A stretch of DNA of 64,000 nucleotides from a virus, in IMG/VR virus record IMGVR_UViG_3300045988_144346, positions 7,829-71,828 of that record; one strand, 5' to 3'. The stretch's first letter is position 1; each line of letters opens with the position of its first letter. Under the pieces are notes generated by a model. That model was given only the letters and a program-made list of their open reading frames with translations, made no database searches and was not told where the DNA came from. Made by a program: the position numbers and the translations under genes. Below, piece after piece: positions 508 to 62,324 of this stretch.

Positions 508-813
508 ATGAGCGAATCCGCTTCCCTTTTCCTCCAAGCCCAGCGCGATCAGCGCACCTTCCGCCGCGCCGCAGGGCTTCTTCAGATGCTCTCCGACCTG
601 ATCTTCTACACGCTCGACGATCTCGACCATCCTCTCGACCCGGAAGACGCAAAGCGCGTCTGCGAATACTGCGAAACGACCGTCAGTTATCTTTCGGAAG
701 ACATGGCCGCGCGGGAAAAGGAGATCGTCGCGCTCTCGTGCGGCGGCTCCGGGGAAAATTTTTCTTCCGGCGGCGGTTGCAAAACGCCTGTCTGCCCGGC
801 ATATAAAGCATAA
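508..813 (+). CDS. small phage protein, paralog of 62018-62221
   Basis: ATG lies 6 nt after the upstream stop. LLQMLSDLIFYTLDDLDHPLDPEDAKRV aligns with LADLLSDLLIYTLDEREKPVHPDDAQRV. The 3' tail reads through promoter-motif copy a. Confidence 0.6.
   Translation: MSESASLFLQAQRDQRTFRRAAGLLQMLSDLIFYTLDDLDHPLDPEDAKRVCEYCETTVSYLSEDMAAREKEIVALSCGGSGENFSSGGGCKTPVCPAYKA
775..805 (+). promoter_or_regulatory. conserved promoter-like motif, copy a
   Basis: GGTTGCAAAACGCCTGTCTGCCCGGCATATA: TTGCAA (777-782), 17 nt, CATATA (800-805). AAGGAGG RBS follows and the ATG is at 834. Confidence 0.55.
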
Positions 814-833
814 AGCAAAAGGAGGTCACGAAG

Positions 834-1793
834 ATGTTTGAAAATTACGATGAGGTTGTCAGAATGTTCACCGCGCAGATGCGCCGCAACGAGTGGACGG
901 AGGCGTCCATCGAAGCCTACACCGGCACGTTCCGCCGCTTCCGCGAGAGCATGGAGAAGAACGGCTTCTCTGAGTTCTGCCCGCAGTCGGTCGTCGCGTT
1001 CGTAGAGGACGGCAGCTGGTCCATCGTGACAACGGATCTGTACCTGACGCATCTTCGTGCGCTCTCCAAGTACGGTGTGTCCATCCGCATCTTCAGCGAA
1101 AATGCCGTGCCGGATGAGCTCCGTCCTCCCAAGCGCAAGCTCGCCGCAGCGCACAAGAAGGAATATTCCCACATTCTGGACGAGCAGCAGATCATGGCGC
1201 TTCTCAACGCCGAAGAGCCGGTGTATACCCGCAAGCCGCATACATGGCTTCGTGAGAAGGCCGAAGTTACGCTGCTCTTCCAGAGCGGTCTCCGCAACTC
1301 TGAGCTGCGCGCGCTCACTCCCGCCGACCTCTTCTGGGATAAGAAGGCCCTGTACGCCCGCGTAACGAAGGGAGATAAGCCCCGCGTAGTCCCGTTCCCC
1401 TCCGCTTCGCAGGAGGCTGTCAGAGCGTATCTGAGCTCCGGTATTCGCCCGGCGGACGCGGGGGACACCGAGCCGCTGTTCGGCTGCTGTGACCGTCTCA
1501 CAGGCGCGTGGAAGAGCTTGGAGCGTCAGCAGCTCTCCACGCTTATCAAGAACTATACCGCGTCCATTCTCGGCGAAGAAGCCTCCTGCCGTACCCACGC
1601 CATGCGCCACGCCTCCGCGTCGTTCCTGCTCGAAAAGGGTGCGCCCATCGAGAGCATTTCCGAAATCCTCGGCCATGCTCAGCCGTCTACGACGCGCATT
1701 TACGCGCAGCGCCTCACCAAGACAGCCCTTGCGGAAACGTTCAGCGATATCCTTGACGCGCCGGTCGCGCAGAGCGCTCTGCACGCCGTCTGA
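834..1793 (+). CDS. tyrosine recombinase (XerC/XerD-like phage integrase family)
   Basis: 319 aa. N-terminal SAM-like core-binding region. C-terminal HAMRHASASFLLEKGAPIESISEILGHAQPSTTRIYAQ (HxxR ... GH ... Y catalytic signature). Confidence 0.85.
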   Translation: MFENYDEVVRMFTAQMRRNEWTEASIEAYTGTFRRFRESMEKNGFSEFCPQSVVAFVEDGSWSIVTTDLYLTHLRALSKYGVSIRIFSENAVPDELRPPKRKLAAAHKKEYSHILDEQQIMALLNAEEPVYTRKPHTWLREKAEVTLLFQSGLRNSELRALTPADLFWDKKALYARVTKGDKPRVVPFPSASQEAVRAYLSSGIRPADAGDTEPLFGCCDRLTGAWKSLERQQLSTLIKNYTASILGEEASCRTHAMRHASASFLLEKGAPIESISEILGHAQPSTTRIYAQRLTKTALAETFSDILDAPVAQSALHAV

Positions 1794-1813
1794 CGCAGTT
1801 TTTAACGGAGGTA

Positions 1814-2872
1814 ATGTCCATGTACTACTTCGACCACGCCGCATCCACACCGACGTTGGAATGCGCCTTAGCGGCTTTTCTGCGGGCGCCAAAAGGAAAC
1901 CCGGACAGTGCGCACGCCGCAGGGCGAGCCGCAAAGAAGTCTTTGGAGGAATCCCGCGAAATTGTCGCCGCTTGTATCGGTGCAGAGCCGGAAGAGATTT
2001 ATTTCTGTTCCGGCGGCACAGAGGCGAACAATCTTGTGATTCACACTATGCTTAAGCACGGCGCCGTACTTTACGGCAATACATCCCATGCATCTGTCTG
2101 GAACATCCCGCAGTATGCCGTGAACCGCCCGGCGTTGGGGATTTCCGTTCCCTATGTGAACAACGAAACCGGGGAAGTCCTCTCCAGAAAACGCATCGCA
2201 GGGTATCACGCAGAGTATCCGCTCCTGCACCTGGACGGTGTAGCCGCTGTCGGTCAGATCAACGTATTTGTAAGAAGATTCGATTGCGACTATCTGACCG
2301 CCGCAGGGCATAAATTCGGCGCTCCGCAGGGCATCGGGTTTATCTATGTCAGGAAAAATTCGCCGCCGATCTCTCCGCTTTTCCATGGCGGCGGACAGGA
2401 AAACCGTGCTCGTCCCGGAACGCCGTCCGTGGCTCTTGCCGCGGCTATGGCCGCCGCGCTCAAATACCGCCTCGAAAACATGCGCATGAATCTTGAACGG
2501 ATGTATTCGGTCCGTGACTACATTATTGACAATGCGCCGTCCATAGAAGGATGCCATATAAACGTGGAAGACTTTGGTTGGGATATTGTTCCGCATATTA
2601 TCTCCATCCGGTTCGACGGTATCCCGTCCGCGCAGATCCTCCCCCTGCTCGATGCGCAGGGTGTCTGCTGTTCTGCCGGCAGCGCGTGTTCCGCCGGCAG
2701 CCGGGAGCCGTCCCGTGTGCTTATAGCCAGCGGATTGTCGGAAAAAGAGGCGCTGGAGACCGTGCGTATCTCTATCTGCCCGGAGACAACGCAGCACGAT
2801 GCGGAGATCCTGCTTTCCGCACTGAAAAACGCCGTGGAAAAACTCAGAAAATTATTACCTCGGGCGCGTTAA
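1814..2872 (+). CDS. class V aminotransferase / NifS-IscS-like cysteine desulfurase (short, 352 aa)
   Basis: YFDHAASTP start, GGTEANN, PLP-lysine context AAGHKFGAPQGIGF, catalytic-loop motif SAGSACSAGSREPSRVL. The ATG at 1820 is an alternative start. Confidence 0.8.
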   Translation: MSMYYFDHAASTPTLECALAAFLRAPKGNPDSAHAAGRAAKKSLEESREIVAACIGAEPEEIYFCSGGTEANNLVIHTMLKHGAVLYGNTSHASVWNIPQYAVNRPALGISVPYVNNETGEVLSRKRIAGYHAEYPLLHLDGVAAVGQINVFVRRFDCDYLTAAGHKFGAPQGIGFIYVRKNSPPISPLFHGGGQENRARPGTPSVALAAAMAAALKYRLENMRMNLERMYSVRDYIIDNAPSIEGCHINVEDFGWDIVPHIISIRFDGIPSAQILPLLDAQGVCCSAGSACSAGSREPSRVLIASGLSEKEALETVRISICPETTQHDAEILLSALKNAVEKLRKLLPRAR

Positions 2873-2890
2873 TCCTTTATAATAATTTCA

Positions 2891-2919
2891 GAAAAAAGGG
2901 AGCCCTTCGGCTCCCTTTT
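2891..2919. terminator. bidirectional rho-independent terminator between convergent genes
   Basis: AAAAAAGGGAGCC-TTCG-GGCTCCCTTTTT: perfect 7-bp GC stem flanked by an A-run and a T-run. Confidence 0.8.
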
Positions 2920-10737: not shown

Positions 10738-13700
10738 TCAGGTGAGATTCAGTATCCGCAGCTGCCGCGCAAGCTCTCCGAGCGTCGTGGTGTTCGCCTG
10801 CTGCTCGGTAAGGTTGATGCCGCCCGGGAACGAATATACCGTGTCGTGGCTGTCCGCAGTGGCTCCGTAGGAGTTCGTCGGCGCCGTGGGTATCCCGGCA
10901 TTGGGCATGCCGTAAACAGCGCCCAGGGCCCGCGCGAAAGCGTCAAATTGCGCGTTCGGCGTCGGCGTTAGGATTTTGGCGGAAAGCGCCGGTCCGAGAA
11001 CGATCTCGTCCTCGCTCGTGGCCTTCACGCCACCCATGCCGCGCAGCACACCGCCGGAGTCGTAGCCGGGAAGCTTCCAGCCGGACGGATTTGTTGCGAT
11101 AAAATCGGCGATCAGCTCCGCAAGAGACTTGACATTGCCCGTCTCGCCCTTCTGCCGGTCGGTGCCGGATCTGGCGACATCCGCCAGAATGTCCGCGATC
11201 TCTCGCAGCGGCTCTTCCACGGACTCAAGGATCTCTTTCCACTTGTTTTCCAGCTCGTCGTACCGGGCGTTAACCGCGTCCTGCTGCGCCTTGATGGCGG
11301 CAACCGCCGCGTCGTATTCCTGATCCTTTCGGAATTTGTCGAGCGCATCCTGCGCCTTCTTGAGCTGGTCTTTGGCGCTCTGCACCGCCTTCTGATCGGC
11401 GATCCATTCCCACTGGCCGGTAGCGGCGTTGTACATGCGCACATTGCGCTCCGCCTGCGCGTTGGCAAACTTTGCCTGTGCCTCCGTAACGGCGAGGATC
11501 TTCTCCTCGAGCTCCAACCGGTCTTCCTCGGTGTCTCGCGCCTTTTTAAGCGCTTCCAGCTGCGCATCCAGATCGGCAAGTTCGGCTTTGCGGGCTTTTT
11601 CCGCTTCGTCGAACTTCTTGTCCATCGCTTCCTGCAGCTCTTTCCAGTAGTCGCTGTCGCCTCCGCCGCCGGAGCCGCCGCCTCCGCCGCCTCCGCCGCT
11701 GTTTCCGCCGGCGTTTCCGGAAAGGCCGGGGACATAAAACTTGCCCTTGTCGGGGTTTCCGAGCTCTCCCGTCGGGTCGTAGTAGCCCCTCGCCGCTGCC
11801 CGAAACAGGCCGTCCGGCCTCTGTCCGTGCAGCATCCGGCGTGTCTGCGGCGCCGTGTATACCATCGCGCCGGGTGCCAGCATCGTGACCGTAGGCTCGC
11901 CGCCTCCGGCAATACGCGCCGTGCTGCCTTCCTGAATGATCTCCGGTCCCTGCTCGTTGACAAGCGTAAGTCCGCCGCCGGAGCTCTTGCCGCCGGAGGC
12001 TTTTCGGCCGATACCCGCTCCTGTAAGGGCCCCAATAACGCCAGCAGTAGCCGCGTGCACGGTTACTGTCCATGTTTTGTCTGTAAGCCCATGGAGTTGA
12101 GATTCAAGAGCGTTGAGGGTCTGCGTTGCGTTTGCCGTTTCCGTAAAAACGTTAACTGTTTTTTCTTCAGGAATTTCTTTTGCTGTTGTCGCAACATCTT
12201 GTAGCGACTCTTGCACCGCGTCAAACGTTATTCCATCAATGCTTTGCAGCGTTGCAACCAGCCCGTCGATTTCCTCCTGACTTTTTCCGGCTTCGCTCAG
12301 TCCTTTGCGGAATTTGTTAAGATCAACATTTTGTGTCCCATCTGCTGCCTTCGTCAGAGCGCCTACGTCTTCGGCAAGCTTGAGTGCCTGATCGCCCGCG
12401 TTGTAGATCTCCGAGCCGTAGACCCCCATGGCCTCCGCCCAGGAGAGGATAACGTCCTCCGAAACGCCGGTATAGTCGGCGAGATCCTGCAGACTCTCCA
12501 CGGTGAAGCTGAGCCCGCTGTCCGTTTTCTCAAAAGACGCCAGCAGCTTTCCGTTTTCGTCGCGGAGTTTTCCCTCGGCGTCGGCCGCATTATAGAGCCA
12601 CTGCGCAAACCCGGCGCCGGCATCCTCTCCGCCGCCGCTGAGCATGGCTTTCAGCCCTTCCAGCCCCTGAATGTATGCCGCCATTTTCTGCGGATCATTT
12701 TCGAGAGCTTCGCGCTCCTTATCAGAGAGGAACAGATTATAGCCCGCCTGTGCCGTGTTGCTGCCGATGCGCCCGTTGGCTATCTCCTCCATGGTTTTCG
12801 CGTAAGCGTCCGCCATGTCCTGGAATCCGTCGTCCTGATCGGACGCCGCTGCCTGCTTAAAGCTGTCTATCGCGCTGGTTGCGTCCTTTACGCGGTCAGA
12901 GAGCGATTCATAGGCTTCCGTTTGCTCGTCAATGGTTTCTGTATTGGTCTCTGTTTCTGATGTTGCGTCTGCGGTTTCTCCTTTGAGTTCGCGGGCAGCG
13001 GACGTTAATACTTGCCACGCCGTCAGCACTTCCAGATCCGTTTTAGATAATTTGATTCCCGCTTCGCTCGCATTTTCCAGTGCATCGGCAATGGGCTGAT
13101 ATTTTTTTACCAGCTCGTCGAGGCTTCTGCCATATTCTTCGGCGCTTAATTTCCCGTCTTGCCAATCTTTCCGCCAGTTGAATATTTGTTTTGGATACAC
13201 CCGAAGGGCCGTGTAATCTTCATCTCGTCGGGTCTGGCGAAGCTCTCGCTTCGCATTCCTGCGATTTTCTTTGTCTGCCGCTTCCTGTAATTCTTTTGTG
13301 GCTTCTATTTGATCTTGGAGAATTTCGAGTCTTTTTTGTTCTACCTCCGTAAGCGCCTCTGCTTTGTTCCGCAGCGCGTTATATTCTTCCTGCGCCGCGG
13401 TCAGCGCATCTTGATTTTTGTGTTTGTCTGGGAAAAACAGATTGTTGAGTGCCGTTACAAGATCCGTAACCGCACCTATAACGTTTTTTTGCCAATCGGT
13501 GGTGGCTATCGACTGCACGAAATCTGTCCAGGTGTTTTGAAGGACATTGATTTGCGACTCCAGGCTTTTCAGCCTTGTCGAAACTTCTTTATCTGCACTC
13601 CCAGCCGCGTCCCCCAGAGACTCCAACATCTTTTTGTAGGTGTCAAATTCTGTAACGAGCGCAACGAGCGAGTTTGTGCGGAGCTTTCCGCCAAGCCCGG

Positions 13701-15024: not shown

Positions 15025-15055
15025 GGTTGCGTTTCGGCCGTCTGCTTGCCATATA
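15025..15055 (+). promoter_or_regulatory. conserved promoter-like motif, copy i
   Basis: GGTTGCGTTTCGGCCGTCTGCTTGCCATATA: TTGCGT (15027-15032), 17 nt, CATATA (15050-15055). AGGAG follows. Confidence 0.5.
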
Positions 15056-15068
15056 TGGCAGAAAGGAG

Positions 15069-35147: not shown

Positions 35148-35195
35148 AATTTCTCTCGCCCTTTCCTTTTGTTGACCCGTGCCTGGTTTACACCC

Positions 35196-35226
35196 TATAT
35201 GGCAAGCAGCGGCGCGTTTTGCAACC
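35196..35226 (-). promoter_or_regulatory. conserved promoter-like motif, copy g
   Basis: Minus strand GGTTGCAAAACGCGCCGCTGCTTGCCATATA. The ATG of the initiator gene is 49 nt downstream. Confidence 0.55.
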
Positions 35227-44254: not shown

Positions 44255-44260
44255 GCGAGC

Positions 44261-44306: not shown

Positions 44307-44340
44307 TTGTCTCGCCGCCCCCTTTTTCGATAGCCGCCGA

Positions 44341-44393: not shown

Positions 44394-44410
44394 TTTGCGT
44401 GATCGTAGAA

Positions 44411-49480: not shown

Positions 49481-49492
49481 CACCTCCTGCCC

Positions 49493-49523
49493 TATATGGC
49501 AATCACAGCCTTAAATTGCAACC
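49493..49523 (-). promoter_or_regulatory. conserved promoter-like motif, copy h
   Basis: Minus strand GGTTGCAATTTAAGGCTGTGATTGCCATATA followed by GGGCAGGAGGTG. Confidence 0.5.
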
Positions 49524-51841: not shown

Positions 51842-51888
51842 TTTTTCGTCCTCCCTATTGTCGGGGCTCTTGTCCCCTTGCAAGTATG

Positions 51889-51917
51889 ATTATATGCCGT
51901 TTAACGGCATAAGGCAA
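51889..51917 (-). promoter_or_regulatory. leftward promoter with perfect palindrome in its spacer
   Basis: Minus strand TTGCCT, 17 nt, TATAAT (context GGCATATAAT). The spacer holds the 8-1-8 palindrome ATGCCGTT-T-AACGGCAT (51894-51910). Confidence 0.5.
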
Positions 51918-52007
51918 GAGACAATTTTGCCCAAAGTTCAAAGGCTTATTTTAGATATTTTGTATATTGTTTAACAGTATAATAAATGTTATCATAACCT
52001 CGAGGGG

Positions 52008-52256
52008 GTGTTTTTATTGCCATTACCCAAAACGGGCAAGCGAACAGACGCGCAGCGCCGCGCCCGAAATAAATGGGATGCGGCGAATATGACAACATTA
52101 GGTTGCCGGATGCGCCGAGACGACGCCGAAAAATTCAAAGGCGCGTGTTATTCGGCAGGAACGACGCCGAACGCCGTTTTTACCGCGGCGGCGGCGGATT
52201 TTATGGAAAAAAACGCAAACAATAACAAAACGTCTGGAGGTGCTGAAAATGAGTAA
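52008..52256 (+). CDS. putative ribbon-helix-helix DNA-binding protein
   Basis: KTGKRTDAQRRARNKWDAANMTTLGCRMRRDDAEKFKGAC...TPNAVF resembles plasmid/phage RHH proteins. GTG 52008 or TTG 52017 start after GAGGGGG. Confidence 0.45.
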   Translation: MFLLPLPKTGKRTDAQRRARNKWDAANMTTLGCRMRRDDAEKFKGACYSAGTTPNAVFTAAAADFMEKNANNNKTSGGAENE

Positions 52257-52461
52257 CCGCGACATTGCGAAAACCTTAATTGACCAGATCCCGGAAACGC
52301 GGCTTTTTAACGTGATCCTCTTTTTACAGGGGGCCGCGCTTCCGGACGCGGAAACGCCGAACGCGGAAACAGCCGCCGCAATTGCCGAGCTTGCGAACGG
52401 CGGCGGGACACGCTTTAGCGGCGACACGTCGGCGCTTTTTGCGTCGATTCTGGAGGGCTGA
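52249..52461 (+). CDS. RelB/DinJ-type antitoxin (70 aa)
   Basis: GGAGG RBS. ETPNAETAAAIAELANGGGTRFSGDTSALFASIL is typical of antitoxins paired with YafQ/RelE toxins. Lies 4 nt upstream of the toxin. Confidence 0.6.
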   Translation: MSNRDIAKTLIDQIPETRLFNVILFLQGAALPDAETPNAETAAAIAELANGGGTRFSGDTSALFASILEG

Positions 52462-52465
52462 CAGA

Positions 52466-52735
52466 GTGCTGGAGATTGTCTATTCCTCCCGCTTTAAGCG
52501 CGACTTGCGGCAATGCGCCAAACGTCAATTAGATTTAACCAGACTGCAAACCGTCATTGACACACTGCGCACGCCCGCGGCGCTCCCGGCACAAAACCGG
52601 GATCACGATTTAACGGGGAATTATTCCGGTTTTCGGGAATGCCATGTTTCCCCGGATTGGTTGTTGATCTACCGCGTGGACGGTAACGCGCTGTTATTGG
52701 CCCGCACCGGATCGCATTCCGACTTGTTCAGCTGA
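52466..52735 (+). CDS. YafQ/RelE-family mRNA interferase toxin (89 aa, GTG start)
   Basis: YSSRFKRDLRQCAKRQLD, HDLTGNYSGFRECHVSPDWLLIYRVDGNALLLARTGSHSDLF (YafQ signature). Confidence 0.8.
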   Translation: MLEIVYSSRFKRDLRQCAKRQLDLTRLQTVIDTLRTPAALPAQNRDHDLTGNYSGFRECHVSPDWLLIYRVDGNALLLARTGSHSDLFS

Positions 52736-52803: not shown

Positions 52804-52834
52804 GGTTGCAATTTGCCGCCGTTGTTGGCATATG
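52804..52834 (+). promoter_or_regulatory. conserved promoter-like motif, copy b
   Basis: GGTTGCAATTTGCCGCCGTTGTTGGCATATG. Confidence 0.5.
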
Positions 52835-52971
52835 AGATATAAAGCAAGCCCCGGCAGCCTCCGGCGGATCGGTAAACGCCGCCGCCCCGGCCGACCGCCG
52901 GGCCCAGCGCCCAGGGTTGCCGGTCCCAGCCCAGCCGCGCCGCCCCCAGCGCTCACGCGAAAAGAAAAACG

Positions 52972-53725: not shown

Positions 53726-53756
53726 GGTTGCAAAACGCGCCTATGCCTGGCATATA
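53726..53756 (+). promoter_or_regulatory. conserved promoter-like motif, copy c
   Basis: GGTTGCAAAACGCGCCTATGCCTGGCATATA. Confidence 0.55.
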
Positions 53757-53799
53757 GGGCAGAAAAGCAAAACGGAAACGCGAAAGGAGAAAGCAAAAA

Positions 53800-54225
53800 A
53801 TGAAGATCACCCGTGAGAGCATCGAAAAGAGCAGCGCCCGCATGGGCAACGGCTGGACGCTCAGCCGTTACCATCTGGTCATGTGCGGCGAGAAAGCCGC
53901 CGAGCTGCAGATCCCCATGGAGGACGGCGGATACATCCAGGGCCGCATCTACATTGACAAAAAATGGAGAGGCTACCAGGCATATGACGGCGTGCGGATC
54001 AGCGTCAACGCCTCCCGCTACTACCCGGCGCAGACCCCCGGCGTTTATGTCTCCCACGGCCTCGGCCACTGGGTGGACATTGACCGCCCGGACATGAGTA
54101 AATGTATGTTTTCGGCGGTGGAGAAGATCACGCACAAGATCACCGCAGACGATATCCGCGCCCTGTGCGAAGCAGGCGCGGCAGCCCTGACCGAAAAAAT
54201 GGCGGAGCTCTCCGCCGCAGCGTAA
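53800..54225 (+). CDS. hypothetical protein (141 aa)
   Basis: AAAGGAGAAAG RBS; protein-like composition. Confidence 0.55.
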   Translation: MKITRESIEKSSARMGNGWTLSRYHLVMCGEKAAELQIPMEDGGYIQGRIYIDKKWRGYQAYDGVRISVNASRYYPAQTPGVYVSHGLGHWVDIDRPDMSKCMFSAVEKITHKITADDIRALCEAGAAALTEKMAELSAAA

Positions 54226-54238
54226 GGAGGCGCAGATC

Positions 54239-54484
54239 ATGAATAACGACATTCTCAAGAATTTTGTCGAGCAGGAGCTCAACGACCACAACAAACACAA
54301 CAACGCCGGCCTCGCCTCCGTCGGTTTTTTCGACGGAGCGAAGACCGAAGAAGTGACCTTCCACAGCAACCACCGCGCGCAATACAACCGCCTGCTGATG
54401 TTCTGCGCGGAGAACGGCCTGACCGTCGTTTCCACGCATCCCGGCACGCTTGCGGCTGTCGTTCGTGTAGAGACCGGCAAATAA
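54239..54484 (+). CDS. hypothetical protein (81 aa)
   Basis: AGGAGG RBS; followed by a terminator. Confidence 0.55.
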   Translation: MNNDILKNFVEQELNDHNKHNNAGLASVGFFDGAKTEEVTFHSNHRAQYNRLLMFCAENGLTVVSTHPGTLAAVVRVETGK

Positions 54485-54683: not shown

Positions 54684-54714
54684 GGTTGCAAAACGGCCGC
54701 CTGGACGGCATATA
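54684..54714 (+). promoter_or_regulatory. conserved promoter-like motif, copy d
   Basis: GGTTGCAAAACGGCCGCCTGGACGGCATATA. The next 26 nt (AAGCATAAAGCAAAAGGAGGTCAC) are identical to copy a. Confidence 0.6.
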
Positions 54715-54742
54715 AAGCATAAAGCAAAAGGAGGTCACTACC

Positions 54743-55966
54743 ATGACACAGAACAAAACCGAGTCCATCCGCTTCTACTACAACGGCCTGCGCGTCAACG
54801 GCGAGCGCAAGCTCACCCGCTGCTGCTATACCATGGATAACCGCCACGACGGCGCCGAGTGCGTCACGATCTACGCGACGGGCTACGACGACCTCCCGCG
54901 CGACATTTTCCCCGTAGAGAACAACAGCGACAGCTATACCGATTATTTCGAGAACGACAGCGCCACGCTTTTCCCCGATCATCCCCTCTATAAATTCGCC
55001 CGCTATGCGGCGATGAAGGCGAACACGCGCGGCAACGCCGAGAGCATCGAGCGCGTGAGCAAAGAGATCGCCGGCATGGGTCGCGAGCCGTGGGCCGGTT
55101 ATATCGACGCGCGCAAGGCCAACGTTGCCCGCTGGCAGCGGGAGATCGCCGACTTCAACGCCGCCGAAGATCCCGGCCAGCCGACCGCCGCCGACGTGGA
55201 AGCGTGCCACGCTCTCCGCCTTGCCGAAGAGAACGCCCGCCGCGAAAAAGAGCACGAGGAAGCGCTTCAGCGCCGGGAAAAGGCGCTGAACGAACAGAAC
55301 AACGGCCGCCGCTTCATCGAGCAGACCGCCGCCGAGCATCCCATCGAGGAGGGGCAGCCGGTCGTGCGCATCCATTGGAGCGAGCACCCCGCGTTCTACG
55401 GCTGGAAGGATGACGAGCTGGTGCTTTCCGTCGCCGCCGCCGAGATCGTTCTCAAGACGTTCGACGAGCAGAAGCGCGACGAAAACGGCGGATACTACAA
55501 GACAAAATTCTCCATCGAGGAGGACGGCGAACTCGTCTACGGCGGCGGGCGCTACGATCTCGGCGACGGGGACGGCGGCCTGTGCGAGCACATCCGCGCC
55601 TTTGGCCGTCACCTGATGGAGCGCGGGCAGTTCGGGCAGGGGGCAACGGAGGAGAACAAGCAGGAAGGCGCGAAGATCGTCGAATTTGCGAACCGTCTCC
55701 AGAGCTACACGCCCGGCGGCTATATTGAGAGCGTCGAGCCGGCGCCTTATATGAATGATGTATTGGAAACTCTGCAGAAAAAGAGAGAGGAAGAAGCCGA
55801 CAACCTTTCCGCGCTGATCCGTCTCCTGCCGGACGAGGGCATCATCGGCATGGCCTCCGACCTTGCCAAGAACGGCTCGCCGGAGACGGCGCGGTACGTC
55901 CTCCTGCAGCTTGCGCAGCGCGACAAGAAGAAGGCCGCCGAAGCCGCGCGAAGTCTCGGATTGTGA
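54743..55966 (+). CDS. hypothetical protein (407 aa)
   Basis: Strong RBS and protein-like composition. No motif I can name. Confidence 0.6.
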   Translation: MTQNKTESIRFYYNGLRVNGERKLTRCCYTMDNRHDGAECVTIYATGYDDLPRDIFPVENNSDSYTDYFENDSATLFPDHPLYKFARYAAMKANTRGNAESIERVSKEIAGMGREPWAGYIDARKANVARWQREIADFNAAEDPGQPTAADVEACHALRLAEENARREKEHEEALQRREKALNEQNNGRRFIEQTAAEHPIEEGQPVVRIHWSEHPAFYGWKDDELVLSVAAAEIVLKTFDEQKRDENGGYYKTKFSIEEDGELVYGGGRYDLGDGDGGLCEHIRAFGRHLMERGQFGQGATEENKQEGAKIVEFANRLQSYTPGGYIESVEPAPYMNDVLETLQKKREEEADNLSALIRLLPDEGIIGMASDLAKNGSPETARYVLLQLAQRDKKKAAEAARSLGL

Positions 55967-55988: not shown

Positions 55989-56019
55989 AGTTGCGAAACG
56001 GGCGGCTGCCCGCCATATA
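55989..56019 (+). promoter_or_regulatory. conserved promoter-like motif, copy e
   Basis: AGTTGCGAAACGGGCGGCTGCCCGCCATATA. Confidence 0.5.
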
Positions 56020-56063
56020 CAGCGTAAAGCCCCGCAAAGCGCGGGGCAGAAAGGGGAAAAAAC

Positions 56064-56783
56064 ATGACCGATACCGAACTTTTGGAGATGGCCGGAATTG
56101 CGATCCGGCACGGAGTGCTCAACGTTTACGGGGGGCGGAGCGACGCCGACACGCAGCGCCTGGTTGACAAAATGCTCAACGACCCCGCCGCGTATTACGC
56201 CGTACCGCCGCTGTATCCGGCGCTGCGCGTCTATGCCGAGCTCCGGGGGCGCGTGGCCGCGAAGTCCTGCGGCTCTGCCATTCAGGCGGCGAAGCGCATC
56301 ATCCGGACATGCGCCCGCAACGATATGCGCGGCGTGTGGAAAAGTGCCGACGGCTCCGCCTGGTGCTGCTGCGATGGGCAGCGGGAAGTCCGGCTGAAAA
56401 ATGTCTCCGGCGTTCCCGTGCTGGAACAGAGCTTTCCGAACCTCGAAGCGCAGATCGACGGCTGCGCCAAAGCGGCCAGCAAGTCGCTCCGGCTCCCTAC
56501 CGCCGCCGAACTCAAAACATACATTGCCGCCGAGAAAGCCGCCGGCGTCAAGCCGGATGCCCTTTGGTATTGGTGGGGCAGTGATACGCCGGCAGTGAAC
56601 GCCTCGTTCCTGCTGGACATGGTGACGATCTTCCCCGACTGCAAGGAAGCGCGGTATCGGACGGAGCTTTCCCCGCTTTACTTCTGCGGCGACAATGGCG
56701 ACGGTATTCTCCTGCCTGTTCGCAGAGCCAAATGCCCCGAATTTGAAAGCCGCTGGAACGAGCTGCACAAAAGCGCCGGTTAA
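56064..56783 (+). CDS. hypothetical protein (239 aa), first gene of a five-gene operon
   Basis: AAAGGGGAAAA RBS. Trp/Cys-containing globular sequence. Confidence 0.55.
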   Translation: MTDTELLEMAGIAIRHGVLNVYGGRSDADTQRLVDKMLNDPAAYYAVPPLYPALRVYAELRGRVAAKSCGSAIQAAKRIIRTCARNDMRGVWKSADGSAWCCCDGQREVRLKNVSGVPVLEQSFPNLEAQIDGCAKAASKSLRLPTAAELKTYIAAEKAAGVKPDALWYWWGSDTPAVNASFLLDMVTIFPDCKEARYRTELSPLYFCGDNGDGILLPVRRAKCPEFESRWNELHKSAG

Positions 56784-56854
56784 CCCCGGCGCTCCCCGCA
56801 AATATACATCATCAATATATACACAGGAAAATCTACACAGAAAGAGGCCGGAAC

Positions 56855-58762
56855 ATGGAACAGGAATTTCTCAGTCTGATCTTTCAGGAGGAAAAGCCGT
56901 ATAGAGGTGAGCGCCGTATAGGAATCTATAAAGGCAGCAAGAAAATCGGCGGCATCGAGCAGGTATATAATCTCTATCGCGGGACAACATATCACGCTTT
57001 TGCTAATCGCCCCTATACTTTCACGGTGCCAACCGCAAACTCTGTCGCTCAGGCAAAGCAGAACTTCGTCCGCGCGCTGAAAGAGCACGGCGGGAACGCG
57101 CCGACCAGCGCCGACATAAAAGACCTTCCCGCTGATCCTGACGCAGAATTTTATCCCACGCCGTCTTGGCTGGCCGGAAAGATGCTCGCCTGTCTCGACC
57201 GCAACGCTCCGATCCGCTCTGTTCTGGAACCGTCCGCCGGGAAAGGCGATCTGCTGTATGCCTTGCAGAAATACAACGCCGCCCAGCGTTACGGCAAAGA
57301 CGAAGACATTTTCGAGCTGGCCGACGTGATCGAAGCAGACCAAAATCTGCGGGTGCTTTTAAAGGGTGCCGGTTTCCGTGTCATCGGCGACGACTTCCTG
57401 CAATTCCACACGCACAAACATTACGACCTGATCCTCATGAACCCGCCGTTCTCCAACGGCGATGCACACCTTCTCCGAGCACTGGACATTCAATCCGGCG
57501 GCGGGCAGGTCCTCTGTCTTCTCAACGCGGAAACGCTGAAAAATCCATATACAAACCGCCGCAAAGCCCTGCTCCAGAAGCTGGAAGAGTACCACGCCCA
57601 TGTGGAATATGTGCAGGGCGCTTTCCAGAAAGCCGCCAGAAAATCCGACGTGGAAGTTGCCATTGTCTATGTCAACATACCCGTTCCGGTCATGCACTCG
57701 AACATCATAGATTATCTGAAACGCGCTGAAAGCGCCGCAGAAATAGAGCCGGGAGAAGCCTCTTCCATTGCCTCTGCGAACTGGATGGAAAACCTTATTA
57801 ACGGCTATGAATTTGAAGCGAAAGCCGGTATTGCTCTCCTGCGAGAATACGCTGCCATGCGTCCATATTTGATGGACGGACATACGAACTATGAGAAGCC
57901 GCTGATATCCATAAGCGTCGGAGACCGTGAAATGGAGGAAAGCGTTCCTGCTGACAGCGTTAACCGGTATCTGGAAAAACTGCGGTACAAATACTGGAAC
58001 GCATTTCTTTCCCGCGAAGAAATGACAAGCCGCATGACTTCCTCCATGAGCAAGCAGTACAGCGAAAAGATCAGCGACCTGAAGCACTACGATTTCAATC
58101 TATACAACCTGCAACAGGTATTCTTTGATATCCGTGCGCAGCTCTCCGGCAATGTAGAGGAAAGCATTCTCGATCTTTTTGAAACACTCTCCGGAAAGTA
58201 CGCGTGGATCAGGGAAGAAAACAACAAGAACATCCACTACTTTAACGGCTGGGCAACAAACAAAGCGCACAAGGTGGGGATGAAAGCCATTTTGCCGATC
58301 AATGGGTTTGGCTCCGCATGGTTGGGGAAAGACCGTGGCCTTGATTCTTATTACATCAGCACGCAGCTTTCCGATCTGGAGCGCGCCATGAACTATCTTG
58401 ACCGGGGAGAAACTACCAAACGGAAAAATCTGCAGAGTTTCATCGACTACGCAGTCAAGTGCGGCAATACCGTCGTGGAAACCACCTATTTCAAAGCAAA
58501 ATTCTATAAGAAAGGCACTTGCCATATTCAGTTTCGCCCGGAAGCACAGCGCATCATCGACCGACTGAATATCTTTGCCGCGCAGAAGAAAAACTGGCTG
58601 CCGCCCTGCTACGGCAGGAAGCGCTACAAAGACATGACACCGGAAGAGGCCGCCGTCATTGATGATTTTCAGGGCGAGGATGCCTACGAAAAACTCATGG
58701 AGAACCCCGGACTATACCTCACGGATGCAACGTCCAGCGATTTTCTTTCGCTCCCTGCATAA
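56855..58762 (+). CDS. N6-adenine-type DNA methyltransferase with DUF4942-like C-terminal domain (635 aa)
   Basis: SAM motif VLEPSAGKGDLL, catalytic LILMNPPFSNGD (NPPF). The long C-terminal region is typical of DUF4942 methylases. Confidence 0.7.
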   Translation: MEQEFLSLIFQEEKPYRGERRIGIYKGSKKIGGIEQVYNLYRGTTYHAFANRPYTFTVPTANSVAQAKQNFVRALKEHGGNAPTSADIKDLPADPDAEFYPTPSWLAGKMLACLDRNAPIRSVLEPSAGKGDLLYALQKYNAAQRYGKDEDIFELADVIEADQNLRVLLKGAGFRVIGDDFLQFHTHKHYDLILMNPPFSNGDAHLLRALDIQSGGGQVLCLLNAETLKNPYTNRRKALLQKLEEYHAHVEYVQGAFQKAARKSDVEVAIVYVNIPVPVMHSNIIDYLKRAESAAEIEPGEASSIASANWMENLINGYEFEAKAGIALLREYAAMRPYLMDGHTNYEKPLISISVGDREMEESVPADSVNRYLEKLRYKYWNAFLSREEMTSRMTSSMSKQYSEKISDLKHYDFNLYNLQQVFFDIRAQLSGNVEESILDLFETLSGKYAWIREENNKNIHYFNGWATNKAHKVGMKAILPINGFGSAWLGKDRGLDSYYISTQLSDLERAMNYLDRGETTKRKNLQSFIDYAVKCGNTVVETTYFKAKFYKKGTCHIQFRPEAQRIIDRLNIFAAQKKNWLPPCYGRKRYKDMTPEEAAVIDDFQGEDAYEKLMENPGLYLTDATSSDFLSLPA

Positions 58763-58838
58763 AACCCTGTCCACCCGGTTAATTCCTATTACACATGACA
58801 TAGCAAGTGTAAGACAAAGACCGCAAAGGAGGCGGAAA

Positions 58839-59801
58839 ATGAAAACAGAACCCATCGACATCATTATCCCCGCGCATAATTGCGCCGACACCATCGGCGA
58901 CACCATCAAAAGCCTTGACCTGCAGCTGTGCAAAGACTTCAAGGCGACCGTCGTGATCGACGGCGCGGACGAAAAGCTGGAAGCCGTCGTAGAGACCGCC
59001 GCAGACTCTCGCCCGTGGCTCCGCTGCATGAAAAGCAACGAAAACAAAGGCGCCGGCGCAGCGCGGAACCTCGGAATGCTGGCGTCCGCTTCCGAGTGGC
59101 TGATGTTCCTCGACGCGGACGACCTTCTGCTCCCCCACGCTATCGCCACCATGCAGCAGGCGATACCGGGAAGGCCGGACTTTGTTATCGGCAAAACCAT
59201 GCGCGAGAGCGAGCGCGGCTGCTACGAAGTCGTCGGGCGCGAACAGCTCACCTGGCTGCACGGGCGAATGTACAACTGCGGCTTTCTGACCGCACACGAC
59301 ATCACATTTCCCAACGATCTGCGCATGAGCGAAGACCTGGCGTTTAATATGAAATGCGCAGAATTGGCGAAGGGCGTTCCGGAAACCTCTTGGCCGGTAC
59401 ATATCCAGCGCTGGAACGGAAAGTCTCTCTCACGGCGTTCCGGGGCGTCCAGAGAGCAGGCGAGGACATATATCAAGGCATGCCTGGACTATGCCGTGAA
59501 CTGCGTCCACGCAGAGCGCGAGCCGGAAGACCTGCGCCTTCTCCCCGACGCTCTCGCCGCCTGTTATTACTACTTGGATGCAGTAGAAAGATTGTTTCCG
59601 AATGACCATGAACTCTACGCAGAAATGTGCCGGGACTTTATCAAACTCGCGCAGACGGTAGAGCTTCCGCGTCTCCGCACGCTCCCCGCATGGGAAGCCC
59701 GGCTTGCCCATTCCCTCGCGCTGCCCTCGCGCCCCTACGGCACGGTGTACATGCCGGAGCTGACCTTTGAGCAGCGTTTCATCAATGCGACCCTAAAATA
59801 A
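58839..59801 (+). CDS. family-2 (GT-A) glycosyltransferase (320 aa)
   Basis: IDIIIPAHNCADTIGDTIKSL, NKGAGAARNLG, DxD motif FLDADDLL. Confidence 0.8.
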   Translation: MKTEPIDIIIPAHNCADTIGDTIKSLDLQLCKDFKATVVIDGADEKLEAVVETAADSRPWLRCMKSNENKGAGAARNLGMLASASEWLMFLDADDLLLPHAIATMQQAIPGRPDFVIGKTMRESERGCYEVVGREQLTWLHGRMYNCGFLTAHDITFPNDLRMSEDLAFNMKCAELAKGVPETSWPVHIQRWNGKSLSRRSGASREQARTYIKACLDYAVNCVHAEREPEDLRLLPDALAACYYYLDAVERLFPNDHELYAEMCRDFIKLAQTVELPRLRTLPAWEARLAHSLALPSRPYGTVYMPELTFEQRFINATLK

Positions 59802-59822
59802 ATATACAGGAGGAACCCACCA

Positions 59823-60053
59823 ATGCGAGCACCCTGCATCATCAAAAGAACCACAGACCGGCACGACGGATTGACCGTCGAGTATCTGGAAACGTCGGTC
59901 CCCAAAGCGAAGTATACCGGAGACAAAACCCGCGCCCGTGTGTTCGTCTACACCGGAGACGCCGAGTATATCGTCCGCACACAGCTTCGCAACGGGGCAA
60001 AGTCGTCGCAAAGCTTCACCGTCGTCACGCTCAAGGAGGGCAAAAGAAAATGA
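59823..60053 (+). CDS. hypothetical protein (76 aa)
   Basis: AGGAGGA RBS. ATGA overlap with the next gene. Confidence 0.5.
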   Translation: MRAPCIIKRTTDRHDGLTVEYLETSVPKAKYTGDKTRARVFVYTGDAEYIVRTQLRNGAKSSQSFTVVTLKEGKRK

Positions 60054-60301
60054 GTACAAAAGCAGTAAGACTTCTTCTCATGTTCCTGTTCGGTCAGGTC
60101 GTTCAGACGGCTGTGATGCTCATCGGCTTTGCGCTGGATATGAACTCGATCATCTGGTGGACCGTCGTTTCCGGTCTTGTGATCTTCTGCGCCGCGTGGC
60201 TCGGCGGGTGCATCGCCGCTCCCGAGGCCGTCCGCTCCAAGCGCCACGCAAAGCCCTCCGGGGGCTCTCCGATGGACGCCGCCTCAAAATATCTCGACTG
60301 A
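60050..60301 (+). CDS. small two-TM membrane protein (83 aa)
   Basis: TM segments LLLMFLFGQVVQTAVMLIGFAL and WWTVVSGLVIFCAAWLGGCIAA. Confidence 0.55.
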   Translation: MSTKAVRLLLMFLFGQVVQTAVMLIGFALDMNSIIWWTVVSGLVIFCAAWLGGCIAAPEAVRSKRHAKPSGGSPMDAASKYLD

Positions 60302-60307
60302 CTCCCC

Positions 60308-60336
60308 TTGCGCGCAGCGCGCAGCTAATCTATAAT
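60308..60336 (+). promoter_or_regulatory. sigma-A-type promoter
   Basis: TTGCGC, 17 nt, TATAAT (perfect -10). Confidence 0.55.
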
Positions 60337-60352
60337 ATTCACAAACAACATA

Positions 60353-60396
60353 AAAATCTGCAAACAACTTTGCGAAAATCTGCAAACAAATTTGCG
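60353..60396 (+). repeat. two tandem 22-bp repeats (candidate operator) between promoter and start codon
   Basis: AAAATCTGCAAACAACTTTGCG / AAAATCTGCAAACAAATTTGCG (one mismatch). Each contains TGCAAA..TTTGCG dyad symmetry. Confidence 0.75.
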
Positions 60397-60416
60397 AAAA
60401 GAAAGGAAATAAAATC

Positions 60417-60701
60417 ATGTCTGAATCCAACGCCAATTATTCCATCAACGAGCCCCGCTTCCAGCGCGTCATCAAGTACGCAACGTCCGCCTCCAAGCAG
60501 ATCCCCGGCGCGCTCGTGCGCGTAGCGGAGAGCGAAGAAACAGACCTCAACACCGTCCGTCTGACTCTCCCCATCCCGTCCGAGATCAACAAGATCGCCG
60601 TCCATTACCTCCACAACGCCGGATTCTCCGCCGACAAGACCGAACTAACCCAGGACGGCTTTACCTTTACCGTAGACATGACGCAGCCCTACGAAGACTG
60701 A
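60417..60701 (+). CDS. hypothetical protein (94 aa)
   Basis: GAAAGGAAA RBS; followed by a GC hairpin. Confidence 0.55.
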   Translation: MSESNANYSINEPRFQRVIKYATSASKQIPGALVRVAESEETDLNTVRLTLPIPSEINKIAVHYLHNAGFSADKTELTQDGFTFTVDMTQPYED

Positions 60702-60732
60702 CGCAGCAACTCCACACCAAGGCACAAACGCC

Positions 60733-60754
60733 CCCTGCGGTTAACCCCGCAGGG
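60733..60754 (+). terminator. GC hairpin (weak terminator, no clean U-tract)
   Basis: CCCTGCGG-TTAACC-CCGCAGGG. Confidence 0.35.
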
Positions 60755-60833
60755 AGCGCAAAATAACTTCAGAGGGTTGCGGCGGTTGCGACACACCCCG
60801 TAGAAAATACTTTAAAATTTCTTCAGATGCCTA

Positions 60834-60862
60834 TTGACTTTATGCGGCAGCAATAATATACT
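60834..60862 (+). promoter_or_regulatory. sigma-A-type promoter
   Basis: TTGACT, 17 nt, TATACT. AAGGAGGG RBS follows. Confidence 0.5.
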
Positions 60863-60893
60863 AATTGCAGGAGCAATAAAGGAGGGATAAACG

Positions 60894-61070
60894 GTGTCTC
60901 CCAAAATAGGGCGTCCCAAGAAAGACGTTACCAAGAGCGTCGAAATCGGCCTGCGACTTACAAAAGAAACAGCAGACAAGCTGCAACGCTGCGCCGACGA
61001 AATGGAAACGACAAGAACCGCCGTAATAGAGCGCGGTATTGATCTTGTGGAAGCCGAGTTAAAAAAATAG
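60894..61070 (+). CDS. ribbon-helix-helix (CopG/Arc-like) protein, 58 aa, GTG start
   Basis: SPKIGRPKKDVTKSVEIGLRLTKETADKLQRCADEMETTRTAVIERGIDLV has the beta-strand-helix-helix pattern. Below the track size cutoff. Confidence 0.55.
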   Translation: MSPKIGRPKKDVTKSVEIGLRLTKETADKLQRCADEMETTRTAVIERGIDLVEAELKK

Positions 61071-61205
61071 TGTAACCGGGCACACGCCGACCAAGCCGAC
61101 CCGGTTACACCATAGAAGAGGCGCATTACAATGCAAATCTCTTTCTGTATTATAACGCGCCTCCATGAAATTGTCAATTTTTTATTATTTCAAGGAGGAC
61201 TTAGT

Positions 61206-62018
61206 ATGTCTGATTCCCTGCGTGTATTCAACAACCACGAATTTGGTAGTGTACGAACCGTAACCGTGGACGGCGAACCTTGGTTCGTCGGCAAAGACGT
61301 GGCACAGGCTCTGGGTTACGGAGAGGGAAAATCGTTAGCCAACGCCGTTGCAAACCATGTTGATGCCGATGATAAGGGGGTCACCGAAATGATGACACCC
61401 GGCGGCAAGCAGAACATGGTTATTATCAACGAGTCCGGCTTGTACAGTCTGATTCTGGCGAGTAAGCTGCCCACAGCGAAAAAGTTTAAGCGCTGGGTCA
61501 CTTCCGAAATACTACCCACGCTCCGCAAAACCGGCACCTACACCGCCCGCACCATGACGCCCAACGAGATCATCGCCGCCATCGCCGCCGATAATGTGGA
61601 AAAAGAGCGCCGGCTGAAATCTCTGGAAGACGGATTCCATGAAGCAATGGAAGTCCTTGCTGAGCCGCCAGAGGCGGAAGAGTGGCGCAAAAAGATTTAC
61701 CAGAAGGTGAGCCGCTATTGCGCCCGCCACGATCTCGACTATACGGAGACGTGGGAAAAGCTGTACGGTCAGTTAGAGATCCGCGCCGGATGCAATCTTG
61801 CAACGCTGCAGACACGCCGCAGAAACCGCGCCCGCATCGCCGGAGCTACAGCCTCCGCCGTGAACGCGATCAACCGGCTGGACTGCATCGCCGCCGACAA
61901 GCGCCTGCGGGAAATTTTCACGGGCATTGTCAAGGAATTTTCCGCCCGGCGCATCCTCGCCTCCTCTGTCGCGCCCGAAACGTCTGCCAATCCTCATGTA
62001 TTCCCCGCGTTGGCCTGA
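61206..62018 (+). CDS. phage antirepressor (Bro-N domain + ORF6C-like domain)
   Basis: LRVFNNHEFGSVRTVTVDGEPWFVGKDVAQALGY...ESGLYSLILASKLPTAKKFKRWVTSEILPTLRKTG is the canonical Bro-N pattern. Confidence 0.85.
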   Translation: MSDSLRVFNNHEFGSVRTVTVDGEPWFVGKDVAQALGYGEGKSLANAVANHVDADDKGVTEMMTPGGKQNMVIINESGLYSLILASKLPTAKKFKRWVTSEILPTLRKTGTYTARTMTPNEIIAAIAADNVEKERRLKSLEDGFHEAMEVLAEPPEAEEWRKKIYQKVSRYCARHDLDYTETWEKLYGQLEIRAGCNLATLQTRRRNRARIAGATASAVNAINRLDCIAADKRLREIFTGIVKEFSARRILASSVAPETSANPHVFPALA

Positions 62019-62221
62019 TGGAGGACGAGACGATGAACACGACCGCCCTGAACCGCATCGGCGAACTTGCCGACCTTCTCTCGGACTTGCTGATCTACAC
62101 GCTCGACGAGCGCGAGAAGCCGGTACACCCGGACGACGCACAGAGAGTCTTTGACCGCGCCGAATTTGTTCTCGCAGAGATTTCCCGCACGGCGTCGGAA
62201 CTGAAAGCCGCCGCCGGTTGA
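62018..62221 (+). CDS. small phage protein, paralog of 508-813
   Basis: The ATG overlaps the upstream TGA. See the alignment under 508-813. Confidence 0.55.
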   Translation: MEDETMNTTALNRIGELADLLSDLLIYTLDEREKPVHPDDAQRVFDRAEFVLAEISRTASELKAAAG

Positions 62222-62245
62222 TTCCAAAAATTCCATAAAACAGCA

Positions 62246-62286
62246 ATGCGCAAAGATTCATTTGAGTCTTTGCGCATTTTTTATTT
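62246..62286 (+). terminator. rho-independent terminator
   Basis: ATGCGCAAAGA-loop-TCTTTGCGCAT TTTTTTATTT. Confidence 0.8.
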
Positions 62287-62293
62287 CCCCGTC

Positions 62294-62324
62294 GGTTGCG
62301 AAATGGCCGCCTGATTGCCATATA
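62294..62324 (+). promoter_or_regulatory. conserved promoter-like motif, copy f
   Basis: GGTTGCGAAATGGCCGCCTGATTGCCATATA. Confidence 0.55.

Follow-up and report, generated by a model that had tools for sequence, protein, structure and literature searches.

A conserved promoter-like motif in nine copies, and the small sigma factor that may read it, in a temperate phage of the human gut

The stretch of DNA considered here, positions 7,829 to 71,828 of the IMG/VR record IMGVR_UViG_3300045988_144346 (64,000 nt in length and termed the window), makes up 64 kb of the 71,584-bp (~71.6 kb) circular genome of a tailed temperate phage, which was closed via locus L003. Proteins identical to those of the window occur on human-gut metagenome contigs of 70-74 kb, and the host is, on sequence grounds, an Oscillospiraceae bacterium of the human gut. 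Megablast found no close relatives among deposited phages, and protein searches returned only distant uncultured faecal phages. The genes of the window were identified by self-trained gene calls and family searches, and are listed with other features in table 1. Here, we focus on a promoter-like motif, GGTTGC-N19-CATATA, that is present in nine copies in the window, and on a small sigma factor encoded by the same phage, which is a candidate for the factor that recognises it.

The earlier note on this DNA had found nine copies of the motif by eye, and a search with the skeleton TTGCRW-N17-CATATR returned exactly those nine (0.05 matches expected; none of 100 shuffled sequences gave nine). On the plus strand the skeleton begins at 777, 15027, 52806, 53728, 54686, 55991 and 62296, and on the minus strand it occupies 35196-35224 and 49493-49521. 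A position weight matrix (PWM) of 42 nt, which extends from GG and TTGC to AAAG, scores the nine copies at 41.3-54.7 bits (28.5-49.1 bits when each copy is left out in turn), whereas the next-best site in the window reaches 6.8 bits and the maximum in shuffled sequences is 15.5 bits. Because of the gap between 41.3 and 6.8 bits, the copies form a discrete set with no weak members. No extra copy is present in the remaining 7.6 kb of the circular genome. The consensus is cGGTTGCaAaacG..c..cTG..TG.CATATA.gG...AAAg, and its conservation is wider than that of a -35/-10 pair, as had been claimed before: beyond the hexamers it takes in the GG that precedes TTGC, single G residues at -14 and -4, and the AAAG of the predicted start (+1). 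The 22 nt upstream of the copies are A/T-rich (mean A+T of 66%, versus 50% in the non-coding DNA of the window; P about 0.002). The copies at 775 and 54684 share an identical run, CGGCATATAAAGCATAAAGCAAAAGGAGGTCAC, that covers the -10 box, leader and ribosome-binding site (RBS); the identity of this segment in the two copies had been noticed, but the run is 33 nt long and not 32, and the 407-aa product encoded behind the second copy, previously called an orphan, contains an LPD25 domain.

Table 1. Motif copies, the sigma gene and other features of the window. Scores are PWM bits.
Feature	Position	Strand	Score (bits)	Genes and remarks
Motif copy 1	775..816	+	54.7	XerD-like tyrosine recombinase 834-1793, then class-V aminotransferase 1820-2872
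Tape measure	10738-14964			
Motif copy 2 (moron type)	15025..15066	+	50.5	109-aa coiled-coil protein 15078-15407, antisense in tail gene block
Portal	26865-28652			
RusA-like resolvase	31931-32422			
DnaB	32419-33762			
O-like replication initiator	33756-35147			
Motif copy 3	35185..35226	-	53.7	Replication initiator, DnaB and RusA-like resolvase (three rows above)
Divergent switch	41329-41527			Flanked by two HTH_3 proteins
Tyrosine integrase	42931-44145			
Sigma-70-family protein, 162 aa	44435..44923	-		Regions 2 and 4 only; last gene before attP
Motif copy 4	49482..49523	-	41.3	Most divergent copy; heads operon 49483 to 44435, sigma gene last
Motif copy 5	52804..52845	+	44.4	-10 box CATATG; after strong terminator; 335-nt GC-rich leader, 87-aa gene at 53176
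Motif copy 6	53726..53767	+	51.6	After strong terminator; 141-aa and 81-aa genes, 53800-54484
Motif copy 7	54684..54725	+	53.8	407-aa LPD25-domain protein 54743-55966
Motif copy 8	55989..56030	+	49.1	AGTTGC; operon 56064-62221 (239-aa protein, DUF4942, GT2 glycosyltransferase, Bro-N, others)
Motif copy 9	62294..62335	+	53.0	After 15-bp-stem terminator; long plus-strand operon running round the circle to copy 1

When CATATA is numbered -12 to -7, GGTTGC falls at -37 to -32, the invariant G at -14 and AAAG at +1 to +4, and the spacer is G+C-rich. All nine copies point at the next gene, and eight are wholly intergenic, though the non-coding share of the window is 11%; copy 1 overlaps the final 39 nt of a predicted 101-aa open reading frame (ORF). 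About six of the nine are directly preceded by clear terminators of the hairpin and T-run type, in keeping with the earlier observation that copies usually follow a terminator, and an RBS and start codon lie downstream. Predicted leaders measure 3-42 nt for seven copies, 103 nt for the copy at 62294 and 335 nt for that at 52804; of the distances to start codons given previously (10-60 nt, once about 340 nt), the single long case stands, but the range for the others has to be redrawn. Taken as a set, the copies are placed at the head of the recombinase and aminotransferase pair, the moron, the replication module, the operon with the sigma gene at its end, four accessory cassettes and the long methylase/SSB operon; the earlier account had named the moron, the replication initiator, an early operon and accessory cassettes. 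A known RNA family or structured leader was considered and rejected: Rfam covariance models gave no match at the gathering threshold anywhere in the window, and the stability of the 335-nt leader of copy 5 is not unusual (z = -0.45). This arrangement makes it very probable that the nine copies are promoters, and we propose that they form one lineage-specific class of strong promoters, heading almost every transcription unit except two repressor/switch regions.

The edges of the motif are also apparent in related phages. Among phage variants, conservation has its limit just after ...TAAAG, also in variants with a different gene downstream, and a mosaic breakpoint lies exactly at the downstream edge of copy 3. 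Clusters of breakpoints within 60 nt of a copy number about 7 of roughly 70, compared with about 1.4 expected, an enrichment of about five-fold. This enrichment, together with the presence of one cassette behind different upstream contexts, would fit a view of the copies as primarily recombination 'linker' sequences for module exchange, with promoter activity secondary. Breakpoints at promoters are to be expected anyway, however, because promoters sit at module boundaries; and the strict co-orientation with genes, the fixed position between terminator and RBS, the invariance in two hexamer-like blocks at promoter spacing and the lack of any inverted-repeat or Xer/attC-like architecture make a primary role in recombination highly unlikely. 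A Xer/dif or attC-like site for the XerD-like recombinase was rejected for want of inverted arms, and a spacer hairpin or covarying inverted repeat (GCC...GGC) was rejected as well, since orthologues flip position 14 between G and C without a compensating change. Every site type keeps its own spacer across genomes, and the promoter of the moron family never scores below 44 bits although the proteins themselves have diverged to 37% identity; the shared core is therefore held by selection and not by gene conversion.

Compared with the consensus for sigma-A, the motif agrees in its -35 box and spacer and departs in its -10 box. TTGCAA and TTGCGA each match TTGACA at four of six positions; TTGC is invariant in the nine copies and nearly so among 69 distinct motif variants, with one C at -35. 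The spacer between TTGCRW and CATATR is exactly 17 nt in all nine copies. An A is found at -11 in every copy, but the T at -7 is missing. This T is a defining contact of group-1 sigmas, in which region 1.2 helps to form the -7T pocket. Among the 69 variants, position -7 is occupied by A in 67, by G in one and by T in one, and none of the nine window copies has T; the alternative register TATAnn, with a spacer of 19 nt, never ends in T. The tally agrees with the earlier note, which had called CATATA a poor sigma-A -10 box lacking the final T and had pointed out that TATAnn would need a 19-nt spacer. Part of the invariance among variants arises because the scans required GGTTGC, TG and CATAT, but the nine window copies and the loci fetched through proteins, which are free of that bias, show the same pattern. 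The sole variant with T at -7 (CATATT) is an extra, weaker copy of 29.5 bits, located between sites of the 53726 and 54684 types in two related loci (L172 4553-4594, minus strand, and L195 432-473).

Elsewhere, canonical promoters are in use. The switch promoters of the phage are TTGACT-17-TATAAT (41471-41443, minus strand), TTGACA-17-TACGAT (41359-41387, plus strand) and TTGCCT-17-TATAAT (51917-51889, minus strand), the last of which is overlapped by the palindrome TATGCCGTTTAACGGCATA. A perfect TTGACA-17-TATAAT at 61177-61149 (minus strand) is found a short way upstream of the Bro-N gene, antisense to the plus-strand operon, and may serve an antisense RNA or a small ORF on the minus strand. 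In host DNA, the promoters of tRNA-Gln (TTGACA-16-TATAAT), PlsY (TTGACA-17-TAATAT) and AddB (TTGCAA-18-TATAAT) are of the same kind. Because canonical TTGACA/TATAAT promoters are used in the same phage and the same host, the motif is a class distinct from ordinary sigma-A promoters; to that extent the earlier idea of a dedicated regulon is supported.

Other promoter classes were compared and rejected. For the extracytoplasmic function (ECF, group 4) sigmas, AAC is found at positions 9-11 in only five of the nine copies and the -10 region lacks CGT. For sigma-54, whose promoters have GG at -24 and, 10 nt further on, GC at -12 (TGGCA-N6-TTGC), there is no conserved GG 10 nt upstream of the invariant GC, the upstream sequence being A/T-rich and variable, and the register of GGCATATAnnGC does not match the consensus quoted in PMC7438776. 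A sigma-28 type promoter agrees with the motif neither in its hexamers nor in its spacing, and a MerR-type promoter with a 19-nt spacer and dyad operator was set aside, as the conserved spacer positions have no dyad symmetry. The earlier alternative, in which a sigma-A promoter would be joined to an operator common to all copies, is conceivable but found no support. The motif does not behave as a set of repressor operators, for no copy is present in the switch regions 41329-41527 or 51842-52016, and the palindromes of these regions (ATCTA..TAGAT and TATGCCGTTTAACGGCATA) are unrelated to it; the motif itself is without dyad symmetry, and a chromosomal remnant, described below, keeps the motif without any repressor gene of the helix-turn-helix (HTH) type. 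As a separate observation, the palindrome TATGCCGTTTAACGGCATA at 51893-51911 overlaps the -10 box and spacer of the promoter at 51917, and a degenerate second copy is located 70 nt away at 51960-51982; the stretch 51893-51982 resembles an operator/switch region, the second in the window, and is flanked by small divergent genes.

The sigma factor that had been suspected at 44435-44923 is a genuine sigma-70-family protein by its domain matches (Pfam Sigma70_r2, 3e-10; r4_2, 1e-6; PHROG 351). NCBIfam model TIGR02937 gives it 66.7 bits with a cut-off of 42.9, and only this generic sigma-70 superfamily model passes; its score against the SigF/SigG family is 58 bits, compared with a cut-off of 234. 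Region 2 is closest to the SigB/SigF/SigG subfamily (E 1e-15), resembles SigA and sigma-F in the PDB, keeps KFSTxA and is not ECF-like; the protein is without regions 1.2 and 3. Its sequence cluster has 623 members, and its clade stands apart: relatives share 77% identity or more, the closest representative outside reaches 46%, and a broad family of small sigmas at 30-40% follows. There is almost no variation in residues 52-150, a stretch that includes region 2.3/2.4 and the helix of region 4, and the same holds for GGTTGC and CATATA in the motif. A motif copy stands at the head of the sigma operon of the window, and also of that of a relative with an 88%-identical sigma, where an extra copy lies inside the operon. 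The phage that encodes a 37% homologue (L013) has canonical promoters and no repeated motif, and the 46% homologue (P0063) is on a 5.7 kb fragment (L160) without internal promoter gaps.

The motif has a narrow distribution. A 36-bit pattern matched nine stretches in 596 Gb of species-representative genomes, of which one is real, a contig of a 'Clostridiales bacterium' metagenome-assembled genome with the phage's moron-type copy, and the others reach no more than 24 bits; in IMG/VR, true copies are confined to this phage lineage. The earlier note had held that its idea of a dedicated regulon would fall if the extended motif proved common upstream of host housekeeping genes. Neither about 17.7 kb of host DNA nor the 596 Gb of genomes shows a copy ahead of a host gene, and a host consensus was rejected as the source of the motif, which is absent from bacterial genomes outside this phage group while host promoters are canonical. 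The motif is common in gut metagenomes, a scan of which yielded at least 120 stretches with it, holding at least 146 copies of at least 25 bits; among the 120 stretches listed, 52 are the phage described here, 38 belong to a chromosomal island and 30 have other contexts.

These other contexts include mobile elements that are unrelated to the phage. One contig, L182, represents a second, unrelated temperate phage type with a CI-like HTH+S24 repressor, a cro-like gene, and recombination and replication genes; directly after the cro-like gene, and before the recombination and replication genes, are two tandem copies of the motif (11944-12092, minus strand; 107 nt apart, 44 and 19 bits), which occupy the same 'delayed-early' position as the window copy at 35226. 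Its cassette is also present in L276, L270, L206 and L176, and recurs behind three different upstream sequences; homologues of the L182-type first gene in other phages have canonical promoters, with no motif. The moron cassette of copy 2 likewise recurs in the chromosomal island of the host and in other integrative elements. Consisting of an A/T tract, the motif, an RBS and a gene for a coiled-coil protein of about 107 aa, it is found beside a large serine recombinase gene at the edge of one element with ABC-transporter/histidine-kinase cargo (L226 2012-4311), and beside a tyrosine integrase gene at the edge of another, near host GAPDH (L221 874-2899).

Two sigma homologues, 91-92% identical to that of the phage, lie in Oscillospiraceae chromosomal DNA between PlsY and tRNA-Gln/AddAB. 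They belong to a low-GC island of ~2.7 kb that extends from PlsY to tRNA-Gln (L011 8100-10700, with L156 and 38 metagenome loci) and is fixed in the host chromosome. It derives from a related prophage, of which it is the end nearest the sigma gene: its identity to window 44204-44961 is 85%, and it runs into tRNA-Gln. For this reason attP is placed between the integrase and sigma genes, where 40 nt (44215-44254) are identical to the 3' part of tRNA-Gln, at which the phage integrates; the attP region (44215-44254 and 44341-44392) also contains three tandem TTTCAAAT repeats and ACATTAAAAAT-type repeats, which are likely integrase arm sites. The island encodes a DUF3267 membrane protein, a 114/119-aa homologue of the product of a 115-aa gene, the sigma and a 106-aa moron homologue, with neither phage late genes nor a repressor, so that what is retained is the sigma and one motif-driven gene. 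Its motif copy (43.9 bits) drives the moron homologue and is about 1.35 kb from the sigma gene; no significant match to the motif is present upstream of the island sigma operon in that orientation. At least 25 loci carry the island-type copy and at least 38 are collinear with L011. The 42-nt motif is identical in all of them, compared with differences of 2-3% in the surrounding DNA, and purifying selection acts on the island sigma (dN/dS 0.10-0.19). A run of 15 nt (AGCATATATGGTAGA; L011 9413-9432, minus strand) in front of the DUF3267 gene is identical to the -10 half of the island motif, with no GGTTGC half at the right distance, and is a partial duplicate or decayed copy.

The reading we favour is that the phage or island sigma factor recognises the motif, and we put its probability at about one in two. 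Indirect evidence in its favour is that sigma and motif are retained together in the remnant, that a motif copy heads the sigma operon, that both are narrowly distributed and that region 2 is SigF/G-like. In the proposed cascade, host sigma-A would fire the canonical switch promoters, and transcription would reach the operon that ends in the small sigma gene. RNA polymerase bearing the phage sigma would then recognise the motif and reinforce its own operon via the copy at 49523, and the other eight units would be switched on, supplying replication, the recombinase, methylases, accessory cassettes and the moron. Such a model would account for several observations: replication genes could stay silent in a lysogen with no need for repressor sites at the individual promoters; the -10 boxes consistently depart from that of sigma-A; the chromosomal remnant keeps exactly the sigma and one motif-driven gene with all other phage functions lost; and sigma and motif have matching narrow distributions.

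Several points weigh against recognition by the phage sigma. The geometry of the motif is sigma-A-like (TTGCAA, a 17-nt spacer, G at -14 in all nine copies, T at -15 in six of the nine and A/T-rich sequence upstream), and TTGC is a frequent start of sigma-A promoters in the host. A sigma operon dependent on its own product would need read-through for basal expression, and a weak hairpin intervenes. In addition, there is no sigma gene in the 13.7 kb L182 contig, despite its tandem motif copies, nor within 5-12 kb of the moron-type cassettes in L226 and L221. The sigma would therefore have to act in trans in these elements, which is plausible because an element of the L221 type (L171) shares a contig with a sigma island (L186).

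The exactly sigma-70-like geometry, the TTGCnn of host promoters and the function, or at least the persistence, of motif cassettes in elements that have no sigma close by can also be taken to mean that the copies are extended -10 sigma-A promoters. CATATA would then be deliberately weak, and the additional conserved bases would be a shared regulator site or a form of kinetic tuning, for example in promoters that are poised or depend on an activator or on supercoiling; the phage sigma would serve another target, such as the late operon that starts at 31823-31930, and the gap in front of that operon does have a different promoter-like sequence, TTGTTT-18-CATATT, as a possible sigma target. However, the same hexamer deviations are found in nearly every copy (A at -7 in 67 of 69 variants), while near-perfect TATAAT boxes occur elsewhere in the same genomes; no dyad symmetry or shared operator was found in the motif, the switch palindromes being unrelated; and in the remnant, with no late genes or repressor, a conserved sigma would have no target. 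We regard weak sigma-A promoters of this kind as possible but doubtful. As an observation on the late-operon gap itself, 31823-31930 (minus strand), between resolvase and packaging genes, has no motif copy and contains a hairpin with an 8-bp stem (GCGGCAGC...GCTGCCGC) in addition to the promoter-like sequence; it is a candidate late promoter or regulatory site.

A further possibility is that an alternative sigma of the host, for example one of the forespore type (SigF/SigG) in a spore-forming Oscillospiraceae, reads the motif, with the phage or island sigma as a mimic by which mobile elements tap or bypass a host programme. The affinities of region 2 with SigB/SigF/SigG (E 1e-15), and with sigma-F in the PDB, point in this direction, as does the presence of the motif in several mobile elements that share a host but are unrelated to each other. 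Promoters of sporulation sigmas typically have -10 boxes of the CATA type, a point to which we attach little weight. Phage homologues of SigF and SigG that activate host sporulation genes are documented (PMC9429907). The motif is not found upstream of host genes in the host DNA and genomes scanned, though; the phage sigma has no region 3 and a region-4 helix unlike that of the long sporulation sigmas; and forespore-specific transcription of phage replication genes would be biologically awkward. Recognition by a host sigma is improbable.

The idea that the phage or island sigma reads the motif can be extended, more tentatively. The sigma could be a phage-derived licensing factor that is resident in the host, and GGTTGC-N19-CATATA the private regulon of several unrelated mobile elements. 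This would cover two temperate phage types, a serine-recombinase element and a tyrosine-integrase element, with the sigma both fixed in an island and carried by phage. If it were true, which we consider possible rather than probable, these elements would depend on, or eavesdrop on, one another's sigma.

Several other features of the window were also noted. Behind copy 1, window 834-2872 encodes a recombinase of the XerD/integron-integrase type and a cysteine desulfurase-like aminotransferase, an unusual auxiliary pair, as the phage has a separate integrase. The operon behind copy 9 encodes a 96-aa protein, an N6/N4 methyltransferase, SSB, DUF3310 and HNH proteins, and others. Upstream of copy 4, in a non-coding gap of 846 nt, a block of ~145 nt (49976-50121) is more than 80% A+T, with degenerate TATATA/GATA repeats, and may be a replication origin or another cis site. 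Within the operon of copy 8, two direct repeats of AAAATCTGCAAACAA that are 22 nt apart (60353-60389) lie in the leader of a 94-aa gene at 60417 and may be a regulator binding site. An early operon is interrupted by an IS605-family TnpB insertion (OrfB_IS605 and Cas12f1-like TNB; 39199-40488, ORF 39328-40335 on the minus strand), which is recent because it is absent from eight related phage loci; the 450-nt gap beside it (38878-39327) could encode a guide (omega) RNA. A toxin-antitoxin pair at 52249-52735 consists of a 70-aa putative antitoxin followed by a YafQ/ParE-type toxin (89 aa, 52466-52735), the latter named from the annotation of identical relatives.

The interest of the system lies in the combination of a temperate, uncultured gut phage, a domesticated sigma/promoter pair in the host chromosome and one promoter used by unrelated mobile elements. 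If the pairing of sigma and promoter is true, the layout and timing of transcription in an abundant uncultured phage of the human gut can be read directly from its sequence, and the means by which a prophage remnant keeps a conversion gene switched on would be explained. Gut Clostridia could also be engineered with it as a compact orthogonal pair (a 162-aa sigma and a promoter of ~60 bp). That unrelated mobile elements in one host share this promoter would exemplify regulatory cross-talk between them.

Similarities and differences to known systems are both evident. Like SPO1 (gp28 for middle genes, gp33/34 for late genes) and T4 (gp55 for late genes), the phage described here has its own sigma and conserved non-host hexamers at normal spacing, and in all of them host sigma-A promoters start the cascade, as is proposed here (for SPO1, a summary is given in PMC13401047). 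Sigmas of SPO1-like Bacillus phages are among the closest in GenBank phages. SPO1 and T4 differ in being virulent, in having sigmas that are no more than 30% identical to this one and in having unrelated promoter sequences, whereas the phage here is temperate, its -35 box is still sigma-A-like and its candidate sigma/promoter pair also survives as a chromosomal remnant. Full-length phage sigmas that match SigF or SigG models have been studied for their effects on host sporulation (Schwartz et al. 2022, PMC9429907, table 1 therein). These too are phage sigmas of Firmicutes hosts with a SigB/F/G-like region 2, but the sigma considered here is of 162 aa, lacks region 3, falls below the SigF/SigG cut-offs and has a phage-borne candidate regulon. 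Extended -10 sigma-A promoters (TGnTATAAT) share with the motif TTGCAA, the 17-nt spacer, G at -14, the A/T tract and a predicted start about 7 nt past the -10 box; they differ in the -10 box, for practically all copies of the motif have CATATA there, with C at -12 and A at -7. The early promoters of phiC31, a temperate phage of Streptomyces, are reportedly many, near-identical and non-canonical, with no obvious factor to read them; their sequence and host are unrelated, and here the phage encodes a candidate sigma. The stoperators and Cluster K start-associated sequences of mycobacteriophages are, like the motif, conserved asymmetric intergenic repeats of temperate phages, oriented with transcription. 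Stoperators, however, are repressor sites of 13-14 bp that are found also at the immunity switch, in contrast to a motif of ~42 bp that is absent from both switch regions, and start-associated sequences lie 3-8 bp from start codons, compared with 3 to 335 nt for the motif. The system is probably a further example of a known strategy, that of a phage promoter class paired with a phage sigma.

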